From Cetorhinus maximus (Eukaryota), in contig NC_135883.1 in the NCBI RefSeq assembly GCF_964194155.1, positions 91,512,001 through 91,576,000 on the forward strand: a DNA stretch of 64,000 bases. Direction: 5' to 3'. Below the pieces are notes generated by a model. It was not told the DNA's origin. It searched no databases and worked only from the letters and a program-made list of their open reading frames with translations. The position numbers and the translations under genes were made by a program. Position 1 is the stretch's first letter. Each line of letters opens with the position of its first letter. Below are positions 3,813 to 64,000 of this stretch, piece after piece.

Positions 3813-4180
3813 TATTTGGATGATTGACTACATATTGTGCATAAGAAGCCATGTGAAACTAATAGGTATAGTCATTAGAACAGTGCATTTGTTTCATATC
3901 TCTCCTCCTTTATTTTGTTTTCTATTAAACCAAATTCTTAAAACCAGTAAAATAAAGGCAATATTTACCCATTTTATTGTAAGGCTGCTTTGAACTTACT
4001 ATGTGTAACATATACTTTAGTAATATATAATTACATAGGAAGTACAATATGGGTGAAATTAGCAGTTAGCCTGTAAAATATAGAGGGAATTCATGCAACC
4101 AGAAAAACAAAGCTTGTGGCAAGTGTTCGCAGATAAAAGGGCATATCAGTCCCATGGAGAATTTTACAGCCTGACTCTCT

Positions 4181-4887
4181 GGGCAGAATTTTCTGCCTGC
4201 CAAGCAGGCAGGCCTGACCCAGTCTCCGGCGGGTGGGGAGCCAAACCCTGCTGGAGAAGCGGGCCCTGCCGCCATTTTAAGTGGGCGGGCCAATTAAGGT
4301 CAGCCCAGTGTGATGTCCGCCGGGAAGCGCTATGTGCTTCCTGTGTGGGCGGGGGGGATTCCCCAAATGCGACAGTGTGCTCTTTCGCGTATGCATACGA
4401 AAGAGCGCACATCTCCCTGAGGCTAAGTGCTGCCTCAGGGAGATTGCTGATAGTTCTAAAAACATTAAAAATAAAGAAAAAAAAATCCTTAACATGTTCC
4501 CCTCATGTGACAATGTCACACGAGATGGGACATGTTCATAATTGACACCAAAATTTTATTAAACTTTTTAAATCCCTACATGAAACCTCATCCCGCCGGT
4601 GGATGAGGTTTCATGTTTTTTCTATTCCCCGCCAGGGTTCCTGGCCTGCCCACCAACATTAAGGTTGGACGGGCAGGTCCTTTAATTGTTTTAATGATCC
4701 TGTCAATGGCCTCAATTGGCCATTGACAGGTTGGCGGGCGCACAGCTGATTTTGCTGCGTCCCTGCCTTCCTGAAGATTTAAATGGGGCAGGATGACATC
4801 GGGGGCTCCCCCCAACGTCATCCCGCGTCATTTCACACGTCGATGAGCAGGCCCCACCCCCTGCTCGCTGACAGCAAAATTCAGCTC
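4181..4887 (+). mobile_element. PIF/Harbinger-type MITE, copy 1
   Basis: TIRs gggcagaattttctg and cagcaaaattcagctc with a 3-bp TSD (TCT). Closely similar to 61493-62077 and, inverted, to 41507-42164. Confidence 0.85.
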
Positions 4888-13380: not shown

Positions 13381-14342
13381 TGGGCCCAAACCACCTTCAG
13401 CTGCTTCATCAATGATCTTCCTTCCATCATAAGGTCAGAAGTGGGGATGTTCGCTGATGATTGCACAATGGTCAGCACCATTTGTGACTCTGCCGAAACT
13501 GAAGCTGTCCATGTTCAAATACAGCAAGACCTGGACAATATCCAGGCTTGGGCTGAGAAGTGGCAAGTAACATTTGCGTCACACAAGTGCCAAGCAATGA
13601 CCATCTCCAACAAGAGAGAATCCAACCATCGCCCCTTGACATTCACTGAATCCCCCACTATAAACATCCTGGGGGTTACCATTGACCAGATACTGAACTG
13701 GACTAGCCATATAAATATGTGGCTACACGAGCACGTCAGAAGCTAGGAATCCTGTGGTGAGTAGCTCACCTCCTGACTTCCCAAAGCCTGTCCACCATCT
13801 ACAAGCCACAAGTCGGGAATGCGATGGAATACTCTCCACTTGCCTGGATGAGTGCAGCTCCAACAACACTCAAGAAGCTTGACACCAACTAGGCTAAAGC
13901 AGCCTCCTTGATTGGCACCATATCAACAAACATTCAGTCCCTCCACCACAGACACACGGTTGCAGCAGTGTGTACCATCTATAAGATGCACTGAAGGAAT
14001 TCACCAAAGCTCCTTCAACAGCATCTTCCAAACCCACGACCACTACCATCTAGAAGGACAAGGGCAGCAGACAGAAGGGAACACCACCACCTGGAAGCTC
14101 CCCCCCCAAGCCACTCACCATCCTGACTTGGAAACTTGGAAATATATTGCCATTCCTTCACTGTCACTGGGTCAAAATCCTGGAACTCCCTCGCTAACAG
14201 CACTGTGGGTGTACCTACACCACATGGACTGCAGCTGTTCAAGAAGGCAGCTCACCACCACTTTCTCAAGGGCAGTTAGGGATGGGCAATAAATGCTGGC
14301 CTAACCAGTGACACTCATATCCCGTGAACGAATAAAAAAAAA
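13381..14342 (+). mobile_element. 5'-truncated LINE of the second family (RT core to A tail), inserted in a palindromic MITE (13307-14450)
   Basis: FSCFINDLPSIIRSEVGMFADDCT RT motif, family tail and A-run. The flanks ggagtaaatttacctctcccc and ggggaaagttaaaatttacccc are inverted ends. Confidence 0.8.
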
Positions 14343-24319: not shown

Positions 24320-26678
24320 ACCCGACTCCTACAAGAGAGGGGGTGGTCCTGAACTTAATTTTAGGGAATGAAGCCGGGCAAGTGGTAGAGGTATCAATGG
24401 GGGAGCATTTTGCAGATAGTGATCATAACTCCGTTAGTTTCATGGTTGTTATGGAAAAGGACAAGGATGGGCCAGAAATCAGAGTTCTAAATTGGGGGAA
24501 GGGCTGATTTTAATAATATCACATATGATTTGGCCAGAGTGGACTGGGAGCAGCTACATTTAGGTAAATTTGCGTCAGCAGTGGGACTCATTCCAAAAGG
24601 AAATAGGCAGAGTACAGGGCCAACATATTCCAGTAAAGACAAAGGGTGGGACCAACAAATCCAGGGAACCTTGGATGTTGAGGGATACACAGGATTGGAT
24701 AAAGAGAAAAAGGGAGGTTTATGGCAGATACCGAGGGCTCAAAACAGTGGAAGCCCTGAAGGAGTATAGAATGTGTAGGGGGAAACTTAAAAAGGAAATT
24801 AGGAGAGCAAAAAGGGGGCATGAAAAAATATTGGCAGGTAAAATAAAGGAAAATCCAAAGTTATTTTACAAGTACATTAAGGACAAGCACATTAACTAGG
24901 GAAAGGACCATTAAGGACCATAGTGGTAATTTGTGTGTGGAGCCAGAAGACGTAGGTAGGGTTCTAAATGAATACTTTGTGTCAGTGTTCACAAGTGAGA
25001 GGGACAATGTGGGTATGGAAATCAGGCAAAAGGACTGTGATATAATTAAAGAAATTAGCATAGAAAGGGAGGAGGTTCTAACTAGTCTGGCAGGCTTAAA
25101 AGTAGATAAATCTTCAGGCCCGGATGAAATGTATTCCAGGCTGTTGAGTGAGGCAAGGGAGGAGATAGCAGGAGCGCTGGCAATAATTTTCAATACCTCT
25201 CTGGCCATATGAGAGGTGCCAGAGGACTGGAGGACAGCCAATATGGTACCATTATTCAAGAAGGGAGGAAGGGATAAACCAGGGAACTACAGGCCAGTCA
25301 TTCTAGCCTCAATGGCAGGGAAACTATTGGAAGCAATTCTGAGGGACAAAAGTAATCTACACTTGGAGAGGCAGGGATTAATCAAGGACAGTCAGCATGG
25401 TTGTGTTAAGGGGAGGTCATGTCTGACCAATTTGATTGAATTTTTCGAAGAGGTGACCAGGTGTGTAGATGAGGGCAATGCATTTGACGTAGTCTACTTG
25501 GACTTCAGCAAGGCTTTTGATAAGGTCCTGCATGGGAGACCGATAACAAGGCCTATGGGATCCAAGCTAATTTGGCAAATTGGATCCAGAATTGGCTGAG
25601 TGGCAGGAAGCAGCGATGATGATCAACCAGGTGATGGTTGAGGGGTATTTTTGTGACTGGATACCTGTGTCCAGTGGGGTTCCACAGGGATAGGTGCTGG
25701 GTCCCTTGCTGTTTGTGGCATATATAAACGATTCAGACTTGAATGTAGGAGGGTTGATCAGTAAGTTCGTAGATGATACAAAAATTGGTGGGGTGGTAAA
25801 TAGTGAGGAGGATAGCCTTAGATTACAGGAGGATATAGGCAGGCTGGTCAGATGGGCTGATCAGTGGCAAATGGAATTTAATCCGATAAGTGTGAGGTGA
25901 TGCACTTGGGCAGGACAAACAAGGCATGGGAATATACGATGAATGGAAGGACCCTGGGAAGTACCGAGGATCAGAGGGACCTTGGTGTACATGTCCACCG
26001 ATCCCTTAAGGTAGCCGGACAGGTGGATAAGGTGGTTAAGAAGGCATTTGGGATACTTTTCTTTATTAGGTGAGGCATAGAATATAAGAGCAGGGAGGTT
26101 ATGCTGGAACTGTATAAAACGCTGGTTAGGCCACAGCTAGAGTATTGTGTGCAGTTCTAGAATCCTCATTATAGGAAGGATATGATTGCATTAGAGAGTG
26201 CAGAGGAGATTTACAAGGATGTTACCTGGGCTGGAGAGTTTTAGTTATGAGGAGGGATTGGATAGACTAGGGTTATTTTCCCTGGAGCAGAGGAGATTGA
26301 GAGGGGACATGATTGAGGTGTATAAAATTATGAGGGGCATAGATAGGGTAGACAGGAAGGAACGTTTCCCCTTGGTGGAGGGATCAATAACCAGGGGGCA
26401 TAGATTCATAGTAAGGGGCAGGAGGTTTAGAGGGGATGTGAGGAAGAATATTTTCAGAGGGTGGTGGGAATCTGGAACTGTCTGAAAGGGTGGTAGAGGC
26501 AGAAACGCTCATAACATTTAAGAAGTATTTGGATGTGCACTTGCGTTGCCATGGCATACAAGGCTATGGGCCTAGTGCTGGAAAATGGGATTAGAATAGT
26601 TAGGTACTTGTTTGACCGGTGCAAACTCGATGGGCCGAAGGGCCATTTTCTGTGCTGTAGACCTCTATGACTCTATGA
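24320..26678 (+). mobile_element. 5'-truncated CR1 LINE (ORF2 remnant ~2.3 kb)
   Basis: Frameshifted ORF2 with PEDWRTAN.VPLFKKG...GNYRPV, KGRSCLTNLIEFFEEVT, VYLDFSKAFDKV, SKFVDDTK and RRLRGDMIEVYKIM, then a 3' UTR with a (ctatgact) tail. Confidence 0.92.
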
Positions 26679-28009: not shown

Positions 28010-31000
28010 GGGGAGGCAGTGGTGTAGTGGTATTGTCGCTGGACTAGTAATCCAGTGACCCAGGGTTCAAAACCCGCCACAGTAATAGAAATCTGCAATT
28101 AAAAGTAGAACGATGACCATTGTTAACTGTTGCAAAAACACAACTGGTTCACTAATGCCCTTTAGGGAAGGAAATCTGCCGTCCTTAACAGGCCTGGTCT
28201 GGCATACCTGTGACTCCAGATCCAAAGCAATGTGGTTGACTCTTAAATGCCCTCTGAAATGGCCTAGCAAGCCACTCAGTTGTAAGAAACTGCTACAAAG
28301 TCACAAAAAAGGAAATGAAACTGGACGGACAACCTGGCATCAACCTAGGTACCGGAAATGACAACGGCAAACTCAACCCTGTTGTCCCTGCAAAATCCTC
28401 CTTACTAACATCTGGGGGCTCGTGCCAAAGGTGGGAGAGCTGTCTCAAAGACTAGTCAAGCAACAGCCTGACATAGTCACCCTCACGGTATCATACCTTA
28501 CAGCTAATGCCCCAGACACCACCATCACCATCCTTGGTTATGTGCTGTCCCACCAGCAGGACAGATCCCGCAGAGGTGGTATACAGTCAGGAGGGAGTTG
28601 CCCTGGGAGTTCTCAACATCGACTCCAGACCCCATGAAGTCTCATGGCATCAGGTCAAACGTGGGCAAGGAAACCTCCTGCTGATTACCACGTACCGCCC
28701 CCACCCCCCTCAGCTGATGAATCAGTGCTCCTCCATGTTGAACACCACTTGGAGGAAGCACTGAGGGTGGCAAGTGTGCAGAATTTACTCTGGGTGGGGA
28801 ACTTCAATATCCATCACCAAGAGTGGCTCGGTAGCAGCACTACTGGCTGAGTCCCAAATGACATAGCTGCTAGACTGGGTCTGCGGCAGGTGGTGAGGGA
28901 ACCAACAGAGGGAAAAACATACATGACCTCATCCTCAATAACCTGCCTGCCGCAGGTGCATCTGCCCATGATGGTATCGGTAGGAGTGACCACCACACAG
29001 TCATTGTGGAGATGAAGTCCCACCTTCACATTGAGGATACCCTCCATCGTGTTGTGTGGCATTACCATCGTGCTAAATGGAATAGATTTCGTACAGATCT
29101 AGCAACTCAAGTCTGGGCATCCATGAGGCACTGTGGGCCATCAGCAGCAGCAGAATTGTACTCGAACACAATCTGTAACCTCATGGCCCGGCATATCCCC
29201 CACTCTACTATTACCATCAAGCCAGGGAATCAACCCTGGTTCAATGAAGAGTGCCTGAGGGCATGCCAGGAGCAGCAACAGGCATACCTAAAAATGAGGT
29301 GTCAACCTGGTGAAGCCAAACAGCATAAGCAGCAAGTGATGGAGAGAGCTAAGCGATCCCACAACCAATGGATCAAATCTAAGCTCTGCAGTCCTGCCAC
29401 ATCCAGTCGTAAATGGTAGTGACCAATTAAACAACTCACTGGAGGAGGAGGCTCCACAAATATCCACATTCTCAATGACAGAGGAGCACAGCACATCAGT
29501 GCAAAAGATAAGGCTGAAGCATTTGCTATAATCTTCAGCCTGAAGTGCAGAATGGATGATCCATCTCGGCCTCCTCCGGAGGTCCCCAGCATCACAGATG
29601 CCAGTCTTCAGCCAATTCGATTCACTCCACATGATATCAAGAAACAGCTGAAGGCACTGGATACTGCAAAGGCTGTGGGCCCTGACAATATTCCTGCAAT
29701 AGTGCTGAAGACTTGTGCTCCAGAACTTGCTGCGCCCCTGGCCAAGCTGTTCCAGTGCAGCTACAATACTGGCATCTACCCCGCTATAAGGAAAATTGCC
29801 CAGGTATGTACTGTGCACAAAAAGCAGGACAAATCCAGCCTGCCCCATCAGTCTACTTTCGATCATCAGTAAAGTAACGGAAGGGGTCATCAACAGTGCT
29901 ATCAAGCGGCACTTGCTTAGCAATAACCTACTCACTAGTGCCCAGTTTGGGTTCCGCCAGGGCACCCAGCTCCTCACCTCATTACAGCCTTGGTTCAAAC
30001 ACGGACAAAACAGCTGTACTCGAGGTGAGGTGAGAGCGACTGCCCTTGACATCAAGCCCGCATTTGACAGGGTGTGGCATCAAGGAGCCCCAGCAAAACT
30101 GGAGTCAATGGGAATAAGGGCAAAAAATCTCCACTGGTTTGAGTCATACCTAGCAGAAAGGAATATGGTTGTGGTTGTTGGAGGTTAGTCATCTCAGCTC
30201 CAAGACATCACTGCAGGAGTTCCTCAGGGTAGTGTCCTCAGCCCAACCATCTTCAGCTGCTTTATCAATGACCTTCCTTCCATCATAAGGTCAGAAGTGA
30301 GAATGTTCACTGATGATTGTACAATGTTTAACACCATTTGCAACTCCTCAGATACTGAAGCAGTCCATGTCCAAATGCAGGAAGACCAGGACAATATTCA
30401 GGCTTGGGCTGACAAGTGGCAAGTAATATTCACACCACACAAGTGTCAGGCAATGACAATCTCCAACAAGGGAGAATCCAACCATCACCCTTTGATGTTC
30501 AATGGCATTACCATCACTGAATCCACCACTATCAACATCCTGGGGGTTACCATGGACCAGAACTGGACTAGCTATATAAATACTGTGGCTACAAGAGCAG
30601 GTCAGAGGCTAGGAATCCTGTGATGAGTAACCGACCTCCTGACTCCCCAAAACTTGTTCACCATCAACAAGGCAGAAGTCAGGAGTGTGATGGAATACTT
30701 TTACTTCCCTGGATGAATGCAGCTCCCACAACATTCAAGAAGCTTGACACTGTCCAGGACAAAGCAGCCCACTTGATTGGCACAAACATTTACTCCTCCA
30801 CCACCAATGCACAGTAACAGCAGTGTGTACCATCTACACGCTGCACTGCAGGAATTCACCAAGGCTCCTTCGACAGCAGCTTCCAAACCCACGACCTCTA
30901 CCATTCAGAAGAACAAGGGCAGCAGATAGCTGGGAACACAACCACCTGCAAGTTCCCCTCCAGGTCACTCATCATCCTAACTTGGAAATATATCGCCATT

Positions 31001-31186
31001 CTTTCACTGTTGCTGGGTCAAAACCCTGGAACTCCCTTCCCAACAGCATTGTGGGTGTACGTATAGCAAATGGACTGCAGCGGTTCAAAAAGGCAGCTCA
31101 CCACCAACTTCTGAAGGGCAACTAGGGACGGGCAATAAATACTGGCCCAGCCAGCGAAGCCCACATCTCATGAATGAATAAAAAAA
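28010..31186 (+). mobile_element. Near full-length EN-RT LINE (second family, CR1/L2-group-like) with a tRNA-like 5' head
   Basis: APE endonuclease remnants (QQPDIVTLT, LLITTYRP, WVGNFNIHHQEWLG), RT remnants (GPDNIP, ALDIKPAFDRVWH, MFTDDCT), a 3' tail and an A-run. There is no room for an ORF1. It splits an older CR1 3' fragment (~27830-28009 and ~31187-31420). Confidence 0.88.
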
Positions 31187-31730: not shown

Positions 31731-32785
31731 AGATACTATCCTGGCAACGTATTTTTACAAATGTTGCACCATATAGGTGTTGGATGTGTCATGTGGTGAT
31801 AAACAAATGCCAATCCCGTTGCAGTAAAACCTGTAGATTAAGAATTTAGGAACTTTCTGAAAATAGTTTTACTTTCTCTGAGAAAATATATTTTCTTTTT
31901 GCAGATAACATTTTGATGGATTTTATCTCATGTTTTAGTTTCTGGGGTAGTGGAGTTGTAAGGAGCACATAACTGATTTCTTGCAGGAGAGTCACTAAGG
32001 AATAGTAACTATTTTTAAATAATATACAGCACTTTAACCCTTGAATGATTGATATTCTCCCTAGTTTTTTGCAACGAGGATGTAAGAAGTGGGGTAGGGG
32101 GTGGGCTTGCGAAGAGGATCAGAGTTATTTGAAGCTCCTATTGTAACACAAGGATGCGGGAATTGAGGCCGGTGGCGATCCATCCACCGACTCCACCCCG
32201 ACCCCATTGCGGATCAATTCCCAGGCCACACTAGCATGCAGTAGTGATGACCTCTTTGCCACACTAGCATGCAGCAATGCTTACTCCTGGGCCACACTAG
32301 CATTCAGCAATGCTGACTCTCAGGCCACACTAGCATGCAGCAATGCTGACCAACAGGCCACACTAGCATGCAGCAATGCTGACCAACAGGCCACACTAGC
32401 ATGCAGCAATGCTTACTCCTGGGCCACACTAGCATGCAGCAATGCTGACCAACAGGCCACACTAGCATGCAGCAATGCTGACCAACAGGCCACACTAGCA
32501 TGCAGCAATGCTGACCAACAGGCCACACTAGCATGCAGCAATGCTTACTCCTGGGCCACACTAGCATGCAGCAATGCTGACTCTCAGGCCACACTAGCAT
32601 GCAGCAATGCTGACCAACAGGCCACACTAGCATGCAGCAATGCTGACTCCCGGGCTACACCAGTATGCTGCAATGCTGACCCCCCGGGCCATACCAGCTT
32701 GCAGCAATGCTGACTCCTGATCCAAACAAGCATGCGGCAATGCTGACTCCTGGGCTACACTAGCATGTGGCAATGCTGACTCCCA

Positions 32786-33066
32786 GGTCACAGAGTAAAG
32801 GGAAGACCTTTTAGAACAGAGATGAGGAGAAACTTCTTTAGCCAGAGAGTGGTGAATCTATGGAATTCATTGCCACAGAAGGCTGTGGAGGCCAGGTCAT
32901 TGAGTGTATTTAAGACCGAGGTAGATAGGTTCTTGATTGGTAACAGGATCAAAGGTTACGGGGAGAAGGCGGGAGAATGGGGTTGAGAAACTTATCAGCC
33001 ATGATTGAATGGCGGAGCAGACTCGATGGGCTGAATGGCCTAATTTCTGCTCCTATGTCTTATGGT
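32786..33066 (+). mobile_element. CR1/HER1 3' end inside the minisatellite (copy A)
   Basis: gagatgaggagaaacttc...aatggcctaatttctgctcctatgtcttatgg. Confidence 0.85.
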
Positions 33067-34282
33067 GATCCCCAGGCCACACTAGCATGCAGAAACGCTG
33101 ACTCCTAGGCCACACTAGCATGCGGCAATGGTGACTCCTGGGCCACACTAGTATGCAGCAATGGTGACTTCTAGGCCACACTAGTATGTAGCAATGCTGA
33201 CTCCCGGGTCACACTAGCATGCAGCAATGCTGACTTCTAGGCCACACTATCATGCAGCAATGCTGACTCCTGGGCTACACCAGCAATGGTGACTTCTAGG
33301 CCACACTATCATGCAGCAATGCTGACTCCTGGGTCACACCAGCATGCCGCAATGCTGACTCCTGGGCTACACCAGCAATGGTGACTTCTAGGCCACACTA
33401 GCATGCAGCAATGCTGACTCCTGGGTCACACCAGCATGCAGCAATGCTGACCCCCAGGCCACACCAGCATGCAGCAATGCTGATTCCCAGGCCACACTAG
33501 CGTGCAGCTATGCTAACTCGTGGGCCACACCTGCATGCAGCAATGATGACTCCTGGGCCACACCTGCGTGCAGCAATGCTGACTCCTGGGCCACACCTGC
33601 ATGCAGCAATGATGACTCTCAGGCCACACTAGCATGCAGCAATGCTGACCAACAGGCCACACTAGCATGCAGCAATGATGACTCTCAGGCCACACTAGCA
33701 TGCAGCAATGCTGACCAACAGGCCACATTAGCATGCAGCAATGCTGACTCCTGGGCCACACTAGCATGCAGCAATGCTGACCCCCAGTCCTCTCTAGCAT
33801 GCAGCAATGCTGACTCCCGGGCCACACCAGCACGCGGCAATGCTGACTCCCAGGCCACACCAGCATGCAGCAATGCTGACTCCCAGGCCACACCAGCATG
33901 CAGCAATGCTGACCCCTGGGCCACACTAGCATGCAGCAATGCTTACTCCTGGGCCACACTAGCCTGCAACAATGCTTAGCCCCGGGCCACACCAGCATAC
34001 AGTAATGCTGACTCCCGGGCCACACTAGCATGCAGCAATGCTGACTCTCAGGCCACACTAGCATGCAGCAATGCTGACCACCAGGCCAAACTAGCATGCA
34101 GCAATGCTGATCAACAGGCCACACTAGCATGCAGCAACGCTGACTCCCGGGCTACACCAGTATGCTGCAATGCTGACCCCCCGGGCCATACCAGCTTGCA
34201 GCAATGCTGACTCCTGATCCAAACAAGCATGCGGCAATGCTGACTCCTGGGCCACACTAGCGTGTGGCAATGCTGACTCCCA

Positions 34283-34563
34283 GGCCACAGAGTAAGGGGA
34301 AGACCTTTTAGAACAGAGATGAGGAGAAACTTCTGTAGCCAGAGAGTGGTGAATCTATGGAATTCATTGCCACAGAAGGCTGTGGAGGCCAGGTCATTGA
34401 GTGTATTTAAGACCGAGATAGATAGGTTCTTGATTGGTAACAGGATCAAAGGTTACGGGGAGAAGGCGGGAGAATGGGGTTGATAAACTTATCAGCCATG
34501 ATTGAATGGCAGAGCAGACTCGATGGGCCGAATGGCCTAATTTCTGCTCCTATGTCTTATGGT
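34283..34563 (+). mobile_element. CR1/HER1 3' end inside the minisatellite (copy B)
   Basis: Near-identical to copy A with the same breakpoints, about 1497 bp downstream. Confidence 0.85.
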
Positions 34564-37500
34564 GACCCCCAGGCCACACTAACATGCAGAAACGCTGACT
34601 CCTAGGCCACACTAGCATGCGGCAATGGTGACTCCTGGGCCACACTAGTATGCGGCAATGGTGACTCCTGGGCCACACTAGCATGCGGCAATGGTGACTC
34701 CTGGGTCACACTAGCATGCGGCAATGCTGACTCCTGGGCTACACCAGCATGCAGCATTGGTGACTTCTAGGCCACACTAGCATGCAGCAATGCTGACTCC
34801 TGGGTCACACCAGCATGCAGCAATGCTGACTCCCAGGCCACACTAGCATGCGGCAATGCAAACTCGCGGGCCATACCTGCATGCAGCAATGCTGACTCTC
34901 AGGCCACACTAGCATGCGGCAATGCTGACCAACAGGCCACACTAGCATGCAGCAATGCTGACTCCCCGGCCACACTAGCATGCAGCAATGTTGACCAACA
35001 GGCCACACTAGCATGCAGCAATGCTGACCAACAGGCCACACTAGCATGCTGCAATGCTGACCCCTGGGCCACACTAGCATGCAGCAATGCTGACTCCCGG
35101 GTCACACCAGCATGCAGCAACGCTGATTCCCGGGCCACACTAGCATGCAGCAATGCTGATTCCCGGGCCACACCAGCATGCAGCAATGCTGACTCCCAGG
35201 CCACACTAGCATGCTGCAATGCTGACCCCTGGGCCACACTAGCATGCAGCAATGCTGACTCCCTGGTCACACTAGCATGCAGCAATGCTGACTCCCAGGC
35301 CACACCAGCACGCGGCAATGCTGACTCCCAGGCCACACCAGCACGCGGCAATGCTGACTCCCAGGCCACACCAGCACGCGGCAATGCAATCTCCTGCTTA
35401 AAACCAAATGTAATTATGTCACAGCTGGTGGTCTGGAGTTGAAATTTGTAAATTGTATGAGGTGGTGGGGGTTGTTGCGGGGCATAGTGGTCCGGCCGTT
35501 GCTGGACTTGCAGGGAAATTATCACCAGCAAAGTAAACGAGCAATAGGGATGGGGCGGGGGTTGACTGGATAGTCCATGATTGGGAGAGGGCTTCTGCTC
35601 AGGCCGCAGAGGCCCAAATTATCCTTGTGGGGCCAAGAGGATTAATGACATTGATCTGGAGCTCCTGTGCCCAGGTTACAGCCTGACACAAGCTTTTGCT
35701 AGTGGCTTTGAGATTGTATGGGTCTTGGTTGGAGCTGTTATAATTGAATGCATGTCCTGATGACCTCCTGGGCCATTTGCTGGTAGCTGACAGGCCCTCT
35801 TCTGCTGGGCGGGGTGACTATCAGCTCCATGGAGGTGACCTCCCTGCAGCCATCCACGGGTCCTATGGAGCTGGAGGAACTGCTTGCCTGGCCCCTCTGG
35901 TTTTAAATTTTTCACTTACCTGCCTGACGGCACCTCCAATTTTGGACACTCTCTTGTTCTTTGACCTGCCTCAGCAGCACCCACTGGGAGCTGCTGAGGT
36001 TATAGAGAGTTGACCCTCTGATTGGATCAGCAGCATCCAGCTCCCACCTGCACCTGATAATTAGATGGCGAGTCTGTAGGTGGCCAAATAGGAAGCTGCT
36101 TCCAGGAAAATTGCTGAGCCAGTCCAACCACTTGCAAGGGAGGGCTTGAGACCCTCATTTGGTCCTGATTTTGGGATCCTGAAGCCCATGGGAAAATCCT
36201 GCCCAAGGTTTCATATTTTCAGGTTCAAAGAATTGAGTTTCATGCCTAATTCGTTTGCTCCAAACTTCCCTATTTCAGATAACATTCTTTCAGGGCTTCA
36301 CTTACCATGGATTATAAGCACAGACATAGATGTTTCCAATTCAATGTAAGGGACTCAGGGAGTGCTTTAAGATGCAATGGAAAGTCAAATTGTTCCCTGG
36401 CCAATTATCTACTAAAACCTTTGTAAGACAAAGTCTTACATCAGACATTAGATGTTGTTTTGGCATCTGTATTTCATCTATTTCTCTGGTTAGATAAAAC
36501 AGCAGATGTTTTTGATATTTGTTCTGTACTTGTTTTCAATCCCTGCCTGGCGTATTGCTAAGGAATGAAACTAAATACAACACAAAGAAGCACAATATCA
36601 GCTGCAAGTATATATCTGAGACCAAAATTGGTTCTGTCGATTATCTTACAGTGTCTCTTATTCTTGTCTTCCACTGTGGGGGAGCTGGGGGTGGAGGTTG
36701 CAGACTTTCAACTCTAGATAACATAGAACCTAAGGCAGTGGTGTAATGGCAGCTTTAGAACTGGTTTATTACACATTATGTGCAGGTGTCAAGGCATTCT
36801 CCCCCAGCTCATTTTTATTTTTGACACTTTGGCATATTTTTCAGCATTTTGAAATAAACCTTTGAGAAACATATATGTAAGTATTTTTAATGTGTTTAGT
36901 CTACATAGGAGAATATATCCCACTAAGCTGAACAAAAAAAGATGGTGAATTATGTGTCTAATGGCAATCTGCTATTAACATCCTGCCCAACACCTATCTT
37001 TGAACCATCACCAGGGAAAGCAGATTAATTTTAGTACTTATTGTCACGTAACTATAGTCGCTGACCTTAAAGTAATGTGCTGTGTTCTTTGAGGTGTTTC
37101 TGAGAGATGTGATAAGGTTCTTTATAAATTTAAGCCTTTCTTTTTAGATACACAAGAGGATGGAAATTGGTTTGCTTTGAGTCTATTTTCCTGGCATAAA
37201 TTGGGTGTAAAGCATTTAGCAGTGGGCTGGCCTGTGTTGAATCCACATAGGTGTTGATCCTACTGCTAAATTTGTGGGGCCCATTCATCAGGTCTCTGGT
37301 CTTAGGCCTGAGAATTTGTTACTAGGGACCTAACAACTGTTGAAGAATCCCTTGTGGAAATGAATCAGTGATGAGTAGAGCAACCATCAGGTCAGGGTTT
37401 TTCCAATGGATAACAAAAGATATGTTTCTGAAGTATTTTTAAAAAATTCCTCCCTGTGGATCCAGGATATACAGGAGGGGTCCCCCAGCTCCAACGCTGT

Positions 37501-45759: not shown

Positions 45760-47618
45760 TTCTTTTCAATTCTTTCACGGGATGTGGACGTCGCTGGCTA
45801 GGCCAACATTTATTGCCCATCCCTAATTGCCCTTGAGAAGGTGGTGGTGAGCTGCCTTCTTGAACAGCTGCAGTCCATATGGTGTAGGTACACACACAGT
45901 GCTGTTAGGGAGGGAGTTCCGGGATTTTGACCCAGCGACAGTGAAGGAATGGCGATATATTTCCAAGTCAGGATGGTGTCTGGCTTGGAGGGGAACTTGC
46001 AAGTTGTGGTGTCTCCATGCACCTGCTGCCTTTGTCCTTCTAGGTGGTAGAGATCTCTGGTTTGGAATGTGCTATTGGAGAAGCTCTGGTAATTTGCAGC
46101 AGTGCGTTTCTAGATGGTATACACTGCTGCCGCTGTGTGTCGGTGGTGCAGGGAGTGAATGTTTAACACGGTGGATGGGGTACCAATCAAGTGGGTTGCT
46201 ATGTCCTGGATGGTGTCCAGCTTCTTGAGTGTTGTTAGAGCTACATTCATCCAGGCAAGTCTAGAGTATTCCATCACACTCTTGCCTTGTGACTTGTAGA
46301 TGGTGGACAGGCTTTGGGGAGTCAGAAGGTGAGTCACTCAGTGCAGAATTCACAGCCTCTGGCCTGCTCTTGTAGCAGAGTATTTGTTCGCTGGTCCAGT
46401 TTCTGGTCAATGGCAACCCCCGGGATGTTGATAGTGGGGGATGGTAATGCTATTGAATGTCAAGGGGCAGTGGTTAGATTCTCTCTTGTTGGGGATGGTC
46501 ATTGCCTCCACTTGTGTGGCACGAATGTTATTTGCCACTTATTAGTTGCAGGTCTGGCTGCATGTGGACATGGACTACTTTAGTGACTGAGGAGTTGTGA
46601 ATGGTGCTGACCATTGTGCAATCATCAGTGAATATCCCCACTTCTGACCTTGTGATGGAAGGAAGGTCATTGATGAAGCAGCTGAAGATGGTTGGGCCTA
46701 GGACATTACCTGAGGAACTCCTGTGGTGATGTCCTGGAACTGAGATGATTGACCTCCAACAACCACAACCTTCTTCCTTGGTGCTCAGTATGACTCCAAT
46801 TATTGCAGGCTTTTCCCTCTGCTTCCAGTTTTACTAGGGCTCCTTGATGCCACACTCTGACAAATGCTGCCTTGATGTCAAGGGCAGTCACTCTCACCCC
46901 ACCCTGGGGGTTCAGCACATATGTCCATCGTTGGATGAAGGCTGTAATCAGGTCAGGAGCTGAGTGGCTCTGGCGGAACCCAGACCAACCATTAGTGAGC
47001 AGGTTATTGCTGAGTATGTACCACTTGATAGAACTGTCAGTGATTCCTTCCATCACTTTGCTGATGATCAAGAGTAGACTGATGGGGCGGTAGTTGGCCA
47101 GGTTGTATTTGTCCTGCTTTTTGCGGACAGGACATACCTGGGCAATTTTCCACATTGCCAAGTAGATGCTTGTGTAGTAGCTGTACTGGAATAGCTTGGC
47201 TCGGTGCCAAGCTAGTTCTGGAGCACAAGTCTTCAGTACTATTGCTGGAATATTGTCAGGGCCCATAGCCTTTGCAGTATCCAGTGCCTTCAGACATTTC
47301 TTGATATCATGTGGAATTAAGTGAATTGGCTAAAGACTGGCATCTGTGATGCTGGGGACCTCGGGTGAAGGCCAAGATGGATCACCTACTCAGCAATTCT
47401 GGCTGAAGATTGTTGCGAATGTTTCAGCCTTATCTTTTGAACTGATGTGCTGGGCCCTCCCATTATTGAAGATGGGGATATTTGTGGAGCCTCTTCCTCC
47501 TGTTATTTGTTTAATTGTCCACCACCATTCGTGACTGGATGTGGCAAAACTGCAGAGCTTAGATCTGATCCATTGGCTGTGGGATCGCTTAGCTCTGTCT
47601 ATTGCTTGCTGCTTCCGC
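45760..47618 (-). mobile_element. 5'-truncated second-family LINE, minus strand
   Basis: GPDNIPAIVLKTCAPELA, ANYRPISLL and ALDIKAAFVRVWH, with the tail at 45760-45850. Confidence 0.9.
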
Positions 47619-49608: not shown

Positions 49609-50426
49609 ACCACTCAAGCTCAAGTGGCATCTCATCCTTCAAACCAAACAGACCTCAGATTACCATCCCCACAGCCCATGTCATGCCTTCCACCTCCAAC
49701 TCTTCATCAACTAGACCAAGACATCAGGACAAAACTGCCTGTGCTAAATGTAATATATCCCTGACACTGCCTGGCAAGCCAAAAAACTTTATTGCACCCA
49801 AAGCTTCTTTAGACATGAAGGACCCCAGACCCATCAGGAAATGGTCATCACTCTCCAAACTCATTGGTGCAGGGAAGTGTAACCCTGAGTGTGAGGCTAC
49901 TGGGAATGTGGATTCTGTAAACAGTATGGCAGATCTATCCAACTGCAATGTGGAGCCATGCACTTATGGAGTAAATGAGCTGGATATTTTTACATATCAC
50001 AATATGAATCATTTGAGAACTGAAGACACAAAGAGTTGGGGTACATGTACCAAAGAGCCCACCCAGAACCAGTCTTCAATTTCCATTGGGCAATACAGAT
50101 TTGAGAATTTTTATAAAGGTGCTGGGGACTCTTCTTTTCCAACTACCACACCCAGCAAAAACCACTTAGATTTAACGTTCAGTGCCTTACGTGCCACCAA
50201 GCCAACCTCAGATGACTGGGAGGCTTCTGGACAAAGACAGAGTTTTATGTCGATGAAACACCAACCTGTTTGTGGGGCTACAGCACCATCATCCCTGAGG
50301 ACACAGTTGTGGCTTAGTGACCAGATGCAAACCAATTCTCTTGACTTCAGACCTGCTGAAGAATCATGTGATTGTCAACACAAGCACCAGCTGGAACAGC
50401 TGAGACAGGAAACTGACCCAATACAG
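49609..50426 (+). CDS. CEP85L: Large internal coding exon of centrosomal protein 85-like (probably the equivalent of mammalian exon 3)
   Basis: Polypyrimidine tract plus AG acceptor (tctctctctctag|AC) at 49607-8 and CAG|GTAAGC donor at 50426/7, with an open frame of 818 nt (phase 1 in, phase 0 out). The translation has motifs I recall from CEP85L: DHSSSSG..SFKP, PTAHVMPS, SLDMKDPRPIRKWSSLSKL, DLTFSAL, LRTQLWLSDQ. Confidence 0.93.
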
Positions 50427-54959: not shown

Positions 54960-56650
54960 AGGGTGTCCAACCCAGGGGCTAAAAGGACCGATGAAATTAA
55001 GGAAATTAATATCAACAGAGAAAAAGTATTGGAGGAACTGTTCTGTCGGTATTTAATTGCAATTAAATACTGACAAATCTAACAAATCCCTGTCTACACC
55101 CTAGGGCTCCAAAAGAGGTAACTGCAGAGATAATGAATATGACTTGACAACATTCCTTGAATTTGGGAACAGTCCCATTAGATTGGAAGTTGGAAAATAT
55201 TACACCACTTTTTAAGAAGGGGAGAGAAAATTGTGAACTGCAGGCAGGTTAGCCTAACATCAGTTGCTGAGAAAATGCTGGAATCTATTATTAACAAAGC
55301 CTTAACAATGTACTTAGAAAAGCATATTATGATTAGAACAAGTCAATATGGTTTTATTAAAGGGAAGTCTTGTTTGACAAATTTATTAGAGTTTTTTGAG
55401 GATGTAACCAGGAAGATAGATAAAGGGGAGCCAGTAGATGTCGTCTACCTGGATTTTCAAAAGGCATTCAGTAAGGTGCGACATAAAAGGTTACTAGGAA
55501 AGATATGAGCTTATGGAGTGGGGGTAATATTTTAGCATGGATAGAGAACTGGTTAATGGATAGAAAGCAGAGAGTGGGCATAAATGGGGCTTTTTCAAGC
55601 TAGCAGGCAACGAATAGTAGAGTGCCGCAAGGATCAGTGTTAGACTCTCAGATATTTTCAATCTATATTAATGACTTAGATGAAGAGACAGAGAGTAATG
55701 TATCTAAGTTTGCTGATGATACCAAGCTAGGTGGAAAGGTAAGCTGTGGGGAGGACACAGAGAGGCTGCAAAGAGATGGAGACAGGTTAGGTGAGTGGGC
55801 AACAAGATGACTTATGGAGTAGAATGAAGAGAAATGTGAAGTTATTCACTTTGGTCATAAGAATAGAAAAGCAGAATATTTTTAAAAATGTTTGAAACTT
55901 CTAAGTGTTGAACTTCAAAGAGACTTGGGTGTGCCCATACAAGGAACGCAGAAAGTGAGTATACAGATGCAGCAAACAAGTAGGAAAAACAAATGGCATG
56001 TTGGCCTTTATTGCAAGGTGATTGGAGTACAAGAATCCAGAAGTCTTGCCACAATTGTACAGGGTTTTGGTGAGACCACATCTGGAATACTGTGTGCTGT
56101 TTTCGTCTCCACATTTAAGAAAGGATATACTTACATTGGAGGCAGCACAGTGAAGGTTCACTAAATTTGTCCCTAGGATGGGTGGGGGGGTGGGGTGCGG
56201 GCTTTTGGGGGGTGGTTGTCCTATGATGAGAAGCTGAGTAAATTGGGCCCATAATCTCTGGAGTTTAGAAAAATGAGAAGCAATCTCATTGAAACCTAAA
56301 AAATCCTGAAGAGACTTGATAGGGTAGACGCTGAGAGATTGTTTTTGCCAGTCAGAGAATCTAGAACACGGGGGCACAGTCTCAGAATAAGGGGCTGATC
56401 ATTTAGTACTGGGATGAGATGAAATTTCTTCACTCAATGGATTGTGAATAATTGGAATTCTCTACCCCAGAGGGTTGTGCGTGCTCCATGCTTAAGGCTG
56501 GGATGGACAGATCAGGGAATTAAGGGATATGGGGAGTGGGTGGGAAAATGGAGTTGAAGTCCAAAGTCAGCCATGATCATACTGAATGGCAGAGTAGACT
56601 TGATGGGCCGTATGGTCTTCTCCTGCTCCTGTTTCTTGTGTTCTTGTACG
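54960..56650 (+). mobile_element. 5'-truncated CR1 LINE
   Basis: KGKSCLTNLLEFFEDVT, VYLDFQKAF, PQGSVL and SKFADDTK motifs, plus the CR1 3' UTR. Confidence 0.9.
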
Positions 56651-59423
56651 TTCTGAAGCATTGGGAAAAATTAAAAACGACTTGTGGTCATAGCTGTCAG
56701 GCCACCAGTGTGGAGGGGGCACACCTCCACAGCAAGGTTTGCGGCTTTGGCTGTGTCTGTCACATCCCATAGCGGGTCTATACTGGGGTGATTGAATGGA
56801 GGCTTTGGTGGCAACCCCACCTCCCCCCCACCACTCCCCTTCCCCCAGTCTGTTGCCAGGGTGTTGCCTTTAGTTAAAGGCTAGACTCCAGACTCACCCG
56901 TGGCCTACCTTCTGTCAGGAAGATTGTGGCAGTGTCATTAACGTTGCCCCAATTGGTCCATTAATGGACATGTTTGGCTACCCACTGCTGCTGGATTTCC
57001 TGGAGGTGGGAACATATTGGATAGCTGATCCGATGTGTTATTTTTCTTTGCTCCTGGTCTCACCTCCTAACCCATCTCTGTGGGACCGGGAATAATCAGG
57101 CTCATAAATTTCTCCCAATCTTGACAAATTTTACAATTATAAATACAGAGTAGAATGAGTTGCCTAAGAAGAAACCATTTATTGATCAGAGATACAGGAG
57201 TTAAAAGAGTGAAATTTTGCACTTTGATTGTATCTAAATTCTAGTTGCTCAGGGAAAGTTAACATGGTGACAAATACTCCATCTGTTGTAGTTAGAATTT
57301 CCTGAGCATTATTTTTAAAAATTTAATTTCTTTGAAAACGTGAAGTGATGATGTCATGTTGACACACATGACCAGGGTTGACAAACCTTGGAAAGCGTTA
57401 CAAATTTGAAGCAATAGGATAATTCCTCAATACCTCAAATTTGGAGAAACAACTTGCATAGTGTGAGCATTGGTCATTTCTGCACTGGAAAATGATAGGC
57501 TTACTGCTTGTGTTTTTCCAGTGCTCATTTGCAGCATGTGAGGCATCTTGCCATGGGTGAGGATCAGAAATCTACTCTTGTTAACTCCTTAATGTATAGC
57601 CTTAACCTGCACCTCCCAGTGTTTACACAGAGACAATCCAATTCCCTATTAGCAGTGCCACCAATTGTGGAAGCCTAGACTTTGGCAGCCATGCTGTAAA
57701 ATAAGTGGTATCAAAATTAAATGAGGCTGTGCCTAAAGGCTATCCCCTCCAAAGACAACAGCCATAAATGGCAAATATAAATGCTGCTTACCTACATAGG
57801 CTAGTAAGTATAATGCCCTTCCCATTACTGGCTGCAGTGTCTTTCCCACCTATCAAAGAAGGTCTGCTAGCCAGAAACGAAATTACAAAATGCAAGTTTC
57901 AGGTGAGATCACAAGTATATTTGTGCAAATGCTACTTCGTTGTTTCTCTGATGCTAAGGAATTTATCCCACAATATAAAAGGGGTAATTTCACAGTGCTG
58001 AAATACCCCCAGAATCCCACAGGATCTTTGGTATTCTCTTTGTGTAGTAATTTTACAATATCGAGCACATAAGGTAACATTCCTTCATTTCTATTGCGTG
58101 ACCTCTGAAAGCAACATAAACTACAAATACGTAAAATAAACCTCATAGTATTACACTGAGACTAGAAGTTTAGTAAGGAGTTCATGGGTTAAAATCTTAA
58201 GTTTATTTTTGAAGGTATCACATCAGCTAAACGGTTTCCTTATAGAAGTGTAATTTGCATTGCATATTAAGAAGATTTATTCAGGATGTGTTACCATGAA
58301 GTGCACTAAATTTAGTGAAGCAGGCACAAAGCTTGAGTTTTCCTGAATGTGATATTCTTGTGCCCTTTTAACCTGTTCAAATGAGGCAATCAGTGCACAC
58401 TCCAAATTGCACTTTAGTTTGTGTCTGAATTGTCTTATGGTTACACTGTTGGGGGAGCTCTGGCTTCAGAATATCAGTACAGTTAAAGTCACAGCTTGGA
58501 TGCCAAAGGGTTGACATAATTCTACATTCAGTTTATTATGTGAAAACATGGGTATTGTTAATTGCAATTGGAGTTTATCTTCTAATTGCTATTTACTCCA
58601 GGCTGAATCTACAGTGTAAGGCATTGTCTACATTATAGATAAGAGTGTTCAAACAAGAGTGGTATGAAATGTACACTGGAATAAATCTACTTGTTGCAGT
58701 CAAACACTACCTTTGTCCCAAGCTATTTCACAAATGAGGAAAATCATGATAACAAGGGTGGACATCAATCAGTGGGGGGAGAAATTAGGATGGATGACCA
58801 TCAGATTAAGCCTAGGACATCATTAGTGCACTGACATTTTCTTCCACCTTGACTGCTTGAATTTAATACTGGATCTCTGAACACCAAGTTTAAAAATTTC
58901 AGTAGAGTCCGATAGCGAATAGTGCTTACGACTTTTAGATGTGTAATGGTGCCATTCCTCACTAATGTCATTTTAAAAAGCATTTTAATGATCCATCTGG
59001 GCAAACAAACATATCTGAATGATACCCTTATGCTCTACAAATGATTAACCCGCTGATTATTGATTAGCTAATATCTATAAATTCTGTTTGCACGTATTTT
59101 CAATGTCATTGCGAAAGGAATAATTTCAGGTGATTTTGGAATTATTGAGGATATACCTCGAAAATAATCATATGTTCAAAACAGCTTTTGTATCTCTTAA
59201 ATGGTTTGTCCAGGAAGCAGTTGGTACATTTTAAAAACAGCAGTTATTGCAAAGGTCCTTGTAGACATTGAATGTTGTTTTCTCAGGTGTGTAGCGCAGT
59301 AGGTCTCAGATTAGTGGTTGCATTTTGATTGGATTTTTCTTCCCAGATCTGAAAGCAATAGTAGCTGCACATAGTCTTCAGGACATAACTCGAAAGTACA
59401 GAACTCAGCAGAAGAAAATAAAA

Positions 59424-59525
59424 TCACATGAGCTTAACAATAATAAACATTAATAACAACACAATGATAATTAGAAGGAAATTCAGAATCAGGCTGAACC
59501 CGCGGTTGTTTGCCAGAATATCCAT
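59424..59525 (-). CDS. 33-aa phospholamban/sarcolipin-family (regulin) micropeptide MDILANNRGFSLILNFLLIIIVLLLMFIIVKLM
   Basis: Hand translation gives ATG at 59525-59523 in strong Kozak context (GGA ATG G) and TGA at 59426-59424. Residues 12-33 align without gaps to human PLN 31-52 (13/22 identical by hand) and end at the same position. The ORF is antisense in the intron after the large CEP85L exon, the known PLN location. Confidence 0.85.
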   Translation of the reverse strand: MDILANNRGFSLILNFLLIIIVLLLMFIIVKLM

Positions 59526-61492
59526 TCCGTCTTTTGCCTTGCACCAGTTGGCCTTGATGGTGTGCTGTGAATTAATTTGTATGTCTCGTAGAAACTATTG
59601 GTGCCTCCTTATTTTCGTTGCCTGAAGCACCTATGTTTGGCATATCAACCTTCTGTCATCTTTTACTTTTCCATTTCCCTGTTGAATAAATAAATATTTC
59701 ATGAGGATTTCTACACAAGCACAAAGGATATGCTCCTAAAATTCTACTGTCTGTCACCTGATCCCAGAGAGAGACTTTAGACTTATTTACAACTAATAAC
59801 TACACTTCAAAATGTAACTTGCATTGCTTATGGTTTTTAAACTTTTGGTCATCTGCCCTGCTATCTTCTTCTATGCCATGGTGTAAAAGATGTTATTTTT
59901 TGTATCGCTCTTATTAAGTGCCTTTGGACGTTTTGTTATGGTAAAGCTGCTAATAAATACAAGTCATTGTTTATACCTGTTACACTTTGTTTAACATTTA
60001 TTAATGGCATTCTTTTTCCTGGGTCATATGCACTTGAGAATCAGAAGCCCTATTTAAATTCTAACCCAGCTCTACCAGCTAATCTTTTACATGGAATTGT
60101 TTTTCTTGCTCTCTCCCTCTCTCTCTTTCTCTTTCCTCCCCTCTCCCTACCCTACCACAATTCACCAAACAACATAATTAAGCACATTGATATAAATTTA
60201 ACCATTTTTAGGCTAAACCTCCGCTTGAATTGCTTTTCTTTTGGTCGAGAAAGCTTACTGAGGATGAAAAGTTAATGCTTTCCAGACACTGCTTCACTTG
60301 CTACCATATAAAGTAATTTGAAAGGGCTCGTGCTTGGAGTGGAGGTACTTTTTACTCTTCATAGGGAGCCGTCCAAAAAACAATTTTATATTTTATTTTT
60401 AAATGCGGATGGATGAAGACTTTGCCCATTTAGGGTAAAGTGTAAAGCATTCTTGTAGCTGAGTAAATAGGAAACATGCCATAATATGTAAAACATTCAT
60501 TGTATGTCTGCTTTCCAATAATAATAATATAGCATAACATTACTTAGGGTTTATATGCAAATATGGTGTTGTGTATGATTTAGTTTCTGTTCTCCCCAAG
60601 TAATGAATGAATATGTTTTTCTTGTAATTCTGAATTCTTTAGAGTTGCGTACAAGAGTCTGCAGTGATTCTTATTCACAGTTTGAGGATAAATGATGCAC
60701 TAGCAATAACATTCTGCTTTTCCTGCAATATGTTGGATGCATTGGCCCACAAAATTTCCCTCATATTTAGATGCACATTAACTCGGATGTAAAAAAAAAT
60801 CAAAGCTTCATTTTACTTTATCAAACCTTTGCATTACACTCCAGCTGGGGACAGTTGGTTATTTAATGTGAAAAGATTTTTGAACCAAAAAAAAGCTATT
60901 ATCACACACTATAAATTGGAGAGAGCAATATTTACTGTTCCATTAATGCTGCATCTAAAATAACATTCAATTTTTGTTGACGTCAAGCAGGTTGAATACA
61001 AATTATAGTTAATGCATTATAATCATATTGAGTATAATTATCAGCACTGTGTTTATATTGTAATTTCCAAAATAGAAATTGTAGTGGATGCATTGTTCCT
61101 TTTTAAATCCTCAAATTTTCCTCCTTCCTCATAAACAGTCTCTCCAAGGGTGCAGTTTTATGGGCGCTAATAACTGTCTGGTACCCTTCACAGAGTTATC
61201 AATCTGAAAAAGTAATGTTCATCAATGTTGAGGCTATCACAGTTGCTGCTCTCACCCAATTTCCATGCGCAGTCTTCTCGAAGGACAACAGGGGTCAAAG
61301 ACTAATGGCTTGAACCTGATTTGTCATCCTTTGTGAATATGGGTGCCACATTGGCCTTTTTTCTAATCTAATGGTACCTCATCACTGTCCAGTCAGTGAC
61401 TTCCTTGGAATAATTATTAATGTCTCACAAATCTCTTCCCTAGTCTCCTACAGCATTCTGGGAGAAATACTGTCTATTCCTGTGGATTTATT

Positions 61493-62077
61493 GGGCAGAA
61501 TTTTCTGCCTACCGGGCGGGCGGGCCCGACCCAATCTCCAGCAGGCGGGGAGCCGAACCCTGCCGGAGAAGCGGACCCTGCTGCCATTTTAAGTGGGCGG
61601 GCCAATTAAGGCCCACCCAGCGTGACACCCGGCGGGAAGCGCTATGCGCTTCCTGTGCGAACAGGGTGGGGGGTGGGGGGGAGTTCCCCAAAAGTGAGAG
61701 TGCGCTCTTTCGCGCATGCGCACGAGAGAACACACGTCTCCCTGAGGCTAAGTGCTGCCTCAGGGAGATCACAGACAGTTGAATAAACATTAAAAATAGA
61801 GAAAAAAAATCCTTAACATGTCCCCCTCATGTGACAATGTCACACGAGATGAGACATGTTAATAAATTTCATTAAAATTTTATTCAACTTTTTAAATCCC
61901 TACATGAAACCTCATCCCGCCGGTGGATCTCACAGCTGATCTCGCTATGCCCCCGCCTTCCTGAAGATTTAAATGGGACGGGATAGCGTCGGGGGTTCCG
62001 CCCAATGTCATCCCGCGTCATTTTGCGCGTCGGCGAGCGGGCCCCGCCCCCTGCTCGCCAATGGCGAAATTCAGCCC
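61493..62077 (+). mobile_element. PIF/Harbinger-type MITE, copy 3 (internal deletion relative to copy 1)
   Basis: TIRs gggcagaattttc and gaaattcagccc with a 3-bp TSD (ATT). It is inserted in a decayed minus-strand CR1 (~61180-62460). Confidence 0.88.
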
Positions 62078-63329: not shown

Positions 63330-64000
63330 CAGCCCCATCAGTCTACTCTCGATCGTCAGTAAAGTAATGGAAGGGGTCATCAACAGCGCTAGCTAGCGGA
63401 ACTTGCTTAGCAATAACCTGCTCACTGACACCCAGTTTGGGTTCCACCAGGACCACTCAGCTCCTGACCTCATTACAGCCTTGTTCAAACATGGACAAAA
63501 GAGCTGAACTCCTGAGGTGAACTGAGAATGACTGCCCTTGACATGAAGGCAGCATTTGCTAGAGTGTGGCATCAAGAAGCCCTAGCAAAACTGAAGTCAA
63601 TGAGAATCAGGGGGAAATCTCTCTGCTGGTTGGAGTCATACCTAGCAGAAAGGAAGATGGTTGTGGTTGTTGGAGGTTTGTTATCTCAGCTCCAGGACAT
63701 CACTGCAGGAGTTCCTCAGGGTAGTGTCCTTGGCCCAACCATCTTCAGCTGCTTCATCAATGACCTTCCTTCCATCATAAGGTCAGAAGTGGGGATGTTT
63801 GCTGATGATTGCACAATGTTCAGCACCATTCGTAACTCCTCAGATACTGAAGCAGTCCATGTCCAAATACAGCAAGACCTGGATGATATCCAGGCTTGGG
63901 CTGACAAGTGGTAAGTAACATTTATGCCAAGCAAGTGTCAGACAATGACCATCTCCAACAAGAGAGAATCTAACCATCATCTTTGATGTTCAATGGCATT
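63330..64000 (+). mobile_element. Second-family LINE RT fragment, running off the window
   Basis: ALDMKAAFARVWH and [20 protein letters not shown]...MFADDCT. Confidence 0.9.

Follow-up and report, generated by a model that had tools for sequence, protein, structure and literature searches.

To our knowledge, phospholamban (PLN) and sarcolipin (SLN) count as the sole two classical SERCA regulators of vertebrate muscle, with one product per gene. In PLN, residues N34, F35 and I38 point toward SERCA's inhibitory groove, and the variants L31A, N34A and I38A lose function (PMC11322925; PMC8396278). PLN 26-52 by itself was reported to inhibit and partly uncouple the pump (PMC7114604), and inhibition by SLN to require the luminal tail (PMC8396278). 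The groove is described as taking many hydrophobic peptides, and non-inhibitory PLN mutants bind it too (10.1101/2020.07.19.211243).

The window analysed here, a stretch of 64,000 nucleotides from the basking shark Cetorhinus maximus, contains a small open reading frame (ORF) downstream of PLN. Judged by its sequence, the encoded peptide lacks defining features of PLN and of SLN and carries those of a PLN/SLN-type regulin.

A regulin-like open reading frame near the shark PLN gene

The ORF (P0002; 59424..59525, minus strand) comprises 33 codons, starts in the context GGA-ATG-G, ends with TGA and translates as MDILANNRGFSLILNFLLIIIVLLLMFIIVKLM. This small ORF with a single C-terminal membrane helix has the layout of the PLN/SLN-type regulins. 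Hydropathy and alignments place the transmembrane helix at residues 12-33, corresponding to PLN 31-52 (59424..59492, minus strand, TGA included in the span), and its mean hydropathy, 3.47 over the 19 residues from residue 12, is the highest among all six-frame segments of the window. The 11 preceding residues (59493..59525, minus strand) would be cytosolic, given the topology of PLN and SLN. The frame remains open for 23 codons before the ORF but offers no ATG. Because two related organisms also carry a 1-nt deletion at 59537 that breaks this extension, MD is the likely translation start.

The peptide is unannotated, and its exact sequence is absent from a collection of 15 billion proteins. 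A near-length word search returned nothing, and the ESM Atlas holds no match of at least 0.9; for the eel peptide, PLN ranks third there at 0.77, which serves as a lead only. Metagenome scans gave 464 pattern matches, none of them confirmed, and no match to a tight pattern. The peptide is single-copy, as a genome search found no second copy in the basking shark. A genome-wide search with PF04272 missed the peptide itself, so other divergent regulins may escape it too. On the strength of its sequence and conservation, the ORF is very probably a translated gene.

The true PLN coding exon is located 13.1 kb upstream on the same strand (G000:C5:91584645-91584800, within the span 91584642-91584800, minus; L001:1498-1656), and its product is the named basking shark phospholamban of the protein collection. 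This PLN keeps RRAS16, with Ala at position 17, a single Cys (41) and Arg at position 49, which is K or R in four sharks and V in the chimaera. The true SLN is found on a different chromosome (C7:53.36 Mb); its reading frame (L017:1495-1596) has two in-frame ATGs, giving 33 or 31 residues, and the C-terminus KSYQE.

A large exon of a CEP85-family host gene is present at 49609..50426 on the plus strand (tblastn to a CEP85-family copy on C22, E 2e-20), and a CC4_CEP85 exon follows 200 kb further on, on the same strand. The peptide exon and PLN thus lie antisense inside an intron of a CEP85L-like gene, downstream of exon 49609-50426. We take the host gene to be CEP85L, given PLN synteny. The synteny in question is that of mammalian PLN, which is reported to sit within CEP85L (PMC13619452). 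In the compact CEP85-family paralogue (G000:C22:78.84-78.86 Mb), 19 kb separate the large exon and the CC4 exon, compared with about 210 kb on C5; a search of 160 kb at this copy found no regulin.

Elsewhere, the window holds a long G+C-rich tandem array (32147-35618), whose unit measures about 30 nt and in which several frames stay open, a dispersed 430-nt repeat (4180-4604 and 61492-61928), and broken reverse-transcriptase-like fragments at 13195-14292, 24564-25599, 28874-31125, 46528-47329, 55182-56645 and 63332-64000, which are presumably of LINE type.

Orthologues in cartilaginous and bony fishes

The orthologue set consists of P0011 with its near-identical cluster mate P0012, P0013 from Aldrovandia affinis, P0014 and P0015, and includes two named teleosts. 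P0011 and P0012 are encoded on transcript-sized contigs and are 88% identical to the shark peptide, with the stop codon at the same place read as W. Two orthologues were called with TGA as Trp, reading into the 3' UTR, and look like annotation errors. In P0013 (KAJ8396234.1), the last 32 residues (76-107) are 66% identical to the shark peptide, and the order in the gene model is PLN then peptide, as in the shark. The 107 residues of P0013, named 'phospholamban', look like PLN 1-48 and the peptide joined by the gene model, but may also be a real two-helix fusion. Two further orthologues are an uncharacterized Anguilla anguilla protein and a JGI protein. P0014 is labelled as a Zn-ribbon protein despite lacking Cys, which looks like an annotation error. 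A phmmer search of 1.84 billion representatives gave two matches at E up to 0.001, both among the orthologue set.

Twenty of the 33 positions are invariant in the five sequences that remain when P0012 is left out as a duplicate. Within the N-terminus these are M1, D2, L4, N6, N7, R8 and G9; the resulting NNRG motif is invariant in the peptide family and occurs in neither PLN nor SLN. All five have an 11-residue N-terminus without RRxS, five additional upstream residues being present in P0014 and nine in P0011, and this segment contains no conserved Ser or Thr. L12, N15 and F16 are invariant as well, forming LxxNF with Asn at the PLN34/SLN11 position. Presence in a shark and in teleosts suggests that the peptide already existed in the jawed-vertebrate ancestor.

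The comparison with PLN and SLN that the first-pass annotation called for was made as an unrooted tree (12 sequences, 26 columns, one SLN), in which the peptide and its orthologues group together at UFBoot 95. Its proposal of a third vertebrate branch is supported, as the genome encodes separate PLN and SLN and the peptide has shark and teleost orthologues of its own.

Relationship of the helix to PLN and SLN

The same annotation had read the helix as a mosaic of PLN and SLN with an intact zipper and no cysteines. Against mammalian PLN and SLN chains, every listed residue match is correct (offset of 19 to PLN). The PLN zipper residues L37, I40, L44, I47 and L51 are kept as L18, I21, L25, I28 and L32, the cysteines C36, C41 and C46 are replaced by L17, V22 and F27, and LxLNF, LMF (LMW in SLN) and VK (VR in SLN) are found as claimed. 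The SLN tail is absent, since the ORF ends where PLN ends, with VKLM-stop in all five orthologues. Counted by hand, 13 of 21 residues agree with the mammalian PLN stretch. When residues 16-33 were shuffled 200,000 times, the exact zipper pattern appeared in 0.23% of cases and L or I at all five zipper positions in 5.3%; by sequence, the zipper match is part of a general PLN likeness and not separate evidence. Conservation of these residues among the orthologues is divided: zipper positions 37, 44 and 51 are invariant, position 40 is I in 3/5 and position 47 in 4/5, with V in the others, whereas the L-M-aromatic motif fails, its aromatic residue being L in 3/5.

The mosaic itself largely dissolves once non-mammalian PLN is considered and the helix proves PLN-like. 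The comparison with mammalian PLN is misleading, as shark PLN likewise has the L-M-aromatic motif and lacks two of the cysteines. M45 is present in four of six non-mammalian PLNs and position 46 is aromatic (Y46) in all six, while C36 and C46 are missing from all five cartilaginous-fish PLNs, so that among the PLN cysteines the loss of C41 alone is special to the peptide. Over the helix, the shark peptide is identical to five cartilaginous-fish PLNs at 12-15 of 22 positions versus 9 of 22 for shark SLN; for the teleost orthologues the values are 10-13 and 9-10 of 22. Seven columns (37, 38, 40, 42, 47, 51, 52) join the peptide to PLN against SLN, two (33, 50) join it to SLN against PLN, and four (29, 30, 32, 39) join PLN to SLN against the peptide. 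SLN-like features are thereby limited to L14, K31 and the short N-terminus.

Profile searches give low scores. With the Pfam Phospholamban model PF04272, the shark peptide alone reaches 17.3 bits (E 0.0033), P0014 14.6 and P0015 12.4 bits, all under the gathering cut-off of 25 bits, versus 100.3 bits for true PLN. The SLN model PF05366 has no match at E up to 10. A PDB search with the single sequence returned SLN at E 0.23 and PLN at E 0.29, and with the orthologue profile all six matches were PLN or SLN (E 0.2-9.5). In hhalign, the value is 94.5% to chimaera PLN versus 81.7% to SLN. A five-orthologue profile, scanned over 10,751 six-frame segments (294 kb) from regions picked to include PLN and SLN and with composition correction off, ranked SLN (19.7 bits) and PLN (19.0 bits) first after the peptide itself, the next segment scoring 14.5. 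No Pfam or PDB match to DWORF, myoregulin, endoregulin or another-regulin was obtained. Homology to PLN and SLN thus appears detectable; the scores are weak singly, and the locus backs them.

With PLN, the peptide shares the helix register, N34/F35/I38, the Leu/Ile zipper, the C-terminal end, the locus and probably exon 1 and the promoter, and chimaera PLN is identical at 15 of 22 helix positions. Unlike PLN, it has 33 instead of 52 residues and lacks the cytosolic helix, the RRxS16 site and Cys41; NNRG replaces the PLN linker, position 50 is K, and the Pfam score stays below the cut-off. With SLN it shares the short N-terminus from MD, LxLNF, LLM, VK and a paralogous SLC35F-linked locus, but it lacks the luminal R/KSYQx tail, Thr5, Trp23 and a PF05366 match, and has Asn and Ser/Asn at the acidic residues E2 and E7 that are reported to act in uncoupling by SLN (PMC7114604). 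Compared by description, sarcolambans too regulate SERCA with one helix, no tail and a similarly short chain, but the peptide has neither their WLL nor their Lys at the PLN Q29 position (10.1101/2020.07.19.211243). DWORF, myoregulin, endoregulin and another-regulin are also small-ORF single-helix SERCA partners; their descriptions differ from the peptide at the N34 position, which is Pro in DWORF, Lys in myoregulin and Asp in another-regulin (PMC8396278).

Origin of the peptide exon

The reading that we prefer, with a probability of about 0.62 for the explanation as a whole, makes the peptide a third jawed-vertebrate regulin of the PLN/SLN type, produced from an alternative last exon of PLN and acting as a SERCA inhibitor. 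The ORF is real and conserved, and the PLN coding exon lies 13 kb upstream of it on the same strand. The peptide exon would have been born when the PLN coding exon was duplicated, before sharks and bony fishes split, which is the simplest history suggested by the alignments; the identities of the peptide exon to PLN by codon position are 13, 17 and 8 of 23.

The first-pass annotation had suggested that an ancestral regulin state may be preserved. This mostly did not survive, and only the idea that the short N-terminus is old persists, as an alternative that we regard as unlikely. It holds that the short form came first and that, after the exon duplication, PLN arose from one copy through gain of the phosphorylation domain, while the peptide copy retained its short N-terminus. 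SLN is also short, and the three sarcolambans studied are described as having 33-45 residues (10.1101/2020.07.19.211243). The peptide is nearer to PLN and SLN (12-15 and 9 of 22) than most PLNs are to SLN (7-9 of 22), and the 5' part of its exon contains no remnant of a PLN N-terminus (p 0.60), although such a remnant is not expected to survive so long and its absence says little. In the unrooted tree, however, the stem branch of the peptide (0.45) is longer than that of PLN (0.21), and the peptide has lost QE-F (PLN 29, 30, 32), which is common to shark PLN and SLN. It also lacks the WLL motif that sarcolambans and SLN are reported to have in common (10.1101/2020.07.19.211243); the peptide family has FII, LIL or LVL at this position, and I47 is common to the peptide and PLN.

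Transcript structure

Four of 22 sequencing runs were examined as contigs; the runs are presumed to be RNA and carry no tissue record. Contig cover and the exon start define a terminal exon at 57897..59678 (minus strand) with a 153-nt 5' part, the ORF and a 3' UTR of about 1.5 kb. Cover extends over 57897-59653 in X9, over 56858-59677 in X6 and up to 59680 in X16, and is near zero beyond. The run from the basking shark itself covers 3' UTR pieces only, and the long contigs come from related organisms. All gaps listed for the X9 (2) and X6 (34 letters) contigs fall outside the ORF; the X16 contigs carry three gaps, and the evidence for an intact ORF covers X9 and X6 only.

At the poly(A) site (57897..57921, minus strand), AATATA is present at 57921-57916; about 20 nt after it, at 57897, the X9 contig ends in 22 untemplated A where the genome has three A. 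Cover extends 1 kb past this site (56858-57897) in the X6 contig and in several pieces from X9 and X11, suggesting a longer 3' UTR form. At the other end, contig cover stops at a 3' splice site (59679..59700, minus strand) with a U-rich tract and a CAG/G acceptor. Three upstream ORFs of 3, 4 and 23 codons (59572..59674, minus strand; ATG at 59674, 59659 and 59643) are contained in the 5' part of the exon, and these ATGs could dampen translation of the peptide. The first of them, MEK-stop, was considered as a remnant of the PLN N-terminus and rejected, its DNA likeness being at chance (p 0.60). The likeness of the exon UTRs to the PLN UTRs has p values of 0.06 and 0.14.

One X16 contig has a loose end that aligns with the final bases of PLN exon 1, located 36 kb upstream of the peptide exon and outside the window (G000:C5:91607633). 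Of 28 aligned columns 24 agree, a single 2-nt gap is needed, and the score of 35 was reached by none of 60 shuffles over 134 kb; the match extends to an AG/GTAAG donor, so that canonical sites are present at both ends of the junction. It was recovered by gapped search; ungapped and 3-mismatch pattern searches of the genome missed it on account of the 2-nt gap. The same donor is joined to the PLN coding exon in the Chiloscyllium gene model P0005. The first exon of PLN (L013:1633-1812, minus strand) is about 140 nt long, contains no ATG, and has CCAAT and TATAAAT just upstream. The X16 junction and the donor in common with P0005 make it probable that the peptide exon serves PLN as an alternative last exon. 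Splicing of exon 1 to the peptide exon would skip the PLN coding exon, as in the one X16 contig, and one promoter would then yield either PLN or the peptide; exon 1 is probably common to both transcripts.

The junction is found in one X16 contig from one run, at a depth of 3.85, and thus in one of the three contigs that reach the splice site. The X6 end is different and the X9 contig stops 25 nt short, which would also suit a separate tandem gene with its own promoter and only occasional read-through from exon 1. Poly(A) signals belonging to PLN itself are located 140-1,100 nt past the PLN stop codon, which fits such a gene pair. Past 59677 the X6 contig has 30 AT-rich letters, either another first exon or an artefact, and this loose end was left unmapped over 134 kb, where 27 of 60 shuffles scored as well. 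The single mapped junction is nevertheless canonical at both ends and no other upstream exon was identified, which leaves a separate gene distinctly unlikely.

The paralogous PLN and SLN loci

An SLC35F gene precedes both loci on the same strand, at C5 92.10-92.30 Mb for PLN and at C7 53.13-53.16 Mb for SLN, and the two are therefore paralogous segments. This arrangement raises the question of whether a long and a short exon were already paired before genome duplication, with the SLN locus keeping the short one only and the peptide being the sister of SLN. The location of both loci downstream of an SLC35F gene fits such a history, as do the short MD start, L14 and K31 that are common to the peptide and SLN, and the peptide-only profile, which rates SLN (19.7 bits) and PLN (19.0 bits) alike. 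The seven helix columns that join the peptide to PLN, versus two to SLN, speak against it, and so does the C-terminus L51-M52-stop, which is the same as in four of five full-length non-mammalian PLNs. A search of 160 kb around SLN found no second regulin. This sister relationship to SLN is accordingly improbable, and duplication within the PLN locus stays the preferred reading.

Predicted action on SERCA

In the preferred reading, the peptide would be tail-anchored in the sarcoplasmic reticulum, where L12, N15, F16, I19 and L23 (PLN 31, 34, 35, 38 and 42) would bind the M2/M6/M9 groove of SERCA and lower its apparent calcium affinity. Expression in muscle is expected from the PLN exon 1 in common. 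The presumed SERCA-facing positions 31, 34, 35, 38, 42, 45, 49 and 52 (PLN numbering), a partly subjective choice, are invariant in 8/8 cases, compared with 3/5 for the zipper and 0/3 for the former cysteine positions; the helical periodicity of the invariant columns is not significant (p 0.085). The peptide has no luminal tail but appears to keep the PLN-type helix, for which a tail is unneeded. From the conserved residues, a role as SERCA inhibitor looks likely, although the acceptance of many hydrophobic peptides and of non-inhibitory PLN mutants by the groove counts against it.

The single Ser of the shark peptide is Asn in teleosts, and Cys is absent. With neither a PKA site nor a conserved Ser/Thr or Cys, the peptide would not be released by adrenergic phosphorylation. 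RGFS was considered as a conserved kinase site and rejected, as S11 is N in 3/5 sequences. Heat production of the SLN type is not favoured, the equivalents of E2 and E7 being absent.

The dose of inhibitor would depend on which splice and poly(A) sites are used and on self-association through the Leu/Ile zipper, either of the peptide alone or in mixture with PLN. The first-pass description of an intact pentamer zipper holds for the residues, which do not establish a pentamer, since the Cys41 position is Val. In PLN, the C41L substitution is reported to give mainly tetramers (10.1101/701797), and SLN is described as keeping the zipper yet forming mostly dimers and trimers (PMC8748397). Position 41 is V or M in the peptide family. 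An oligomer of some size is likely on these grounds, whereas a pentamer specifically is doubtful.

The retained zipper face (L37, L44 and L51 invariant) and the likely co-expression with PLN, if the promoter is common, could also serve a modulator that does not inhibit the pump but, through weak groove binding or co-assembly with PLN, buffers or displaces PLN, with an effect like that of DWORF. Q29, replaced by F or L in the peptide, is a residue at which Q29A is reported as a loss-of-function change in PLN (PMC11322925). DWORF, however, has Pro at the N34 position (PMC8396278), where the peptide family has invariant Asn, Phe and Ile, and a purely modulatory role is quite improbable. That the exon is an untranslated or dead PLN copy in a non-coding transcript, as its lack of annotation, three upstream ATGs and score below the Pfam cut-off might suggest, is hardly credible given a protein conserved from shark to teleosts with conservative changes and a fixed start and stop.

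Implications

No description of the peptide was found in the titles and abstract openings of the literature searched, and fish small-ORF tables or ribosome-profiling supplements might contain it; passages of PMC5684175 and PMC12185491 contain nothing on it. With odds slightly better than even, the PLN gene of cartilaginous and at least some ray-finned fishes would use last-exon choice to swap a 52-residue, PKA-switchable SERCA brake for a 33-residue brake beyond the reach of phosphorylation and cysteine modification, the latter representing an undescribed third PLN/SLN-type family missed by annotation. Such a family would be more than 400 million years old.

If this is true, the reading of fish cardiac calcium handling, of PLN expression data and of fish PLN knock-outs changes, as two peptides would be lost when exon 1 or the promoter is targeted, and splice choice would be an added means of tuning adrenergic control of the pump. 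The peptide would amount to a naturally occurring PLN that lacks the phosphorylation domain, a form studied so far as a truncation only, and would thereby test what this domain contributes. It would also provide a third sequence family for deciding between gain of the domain in PLN and its loss in the short regulins.
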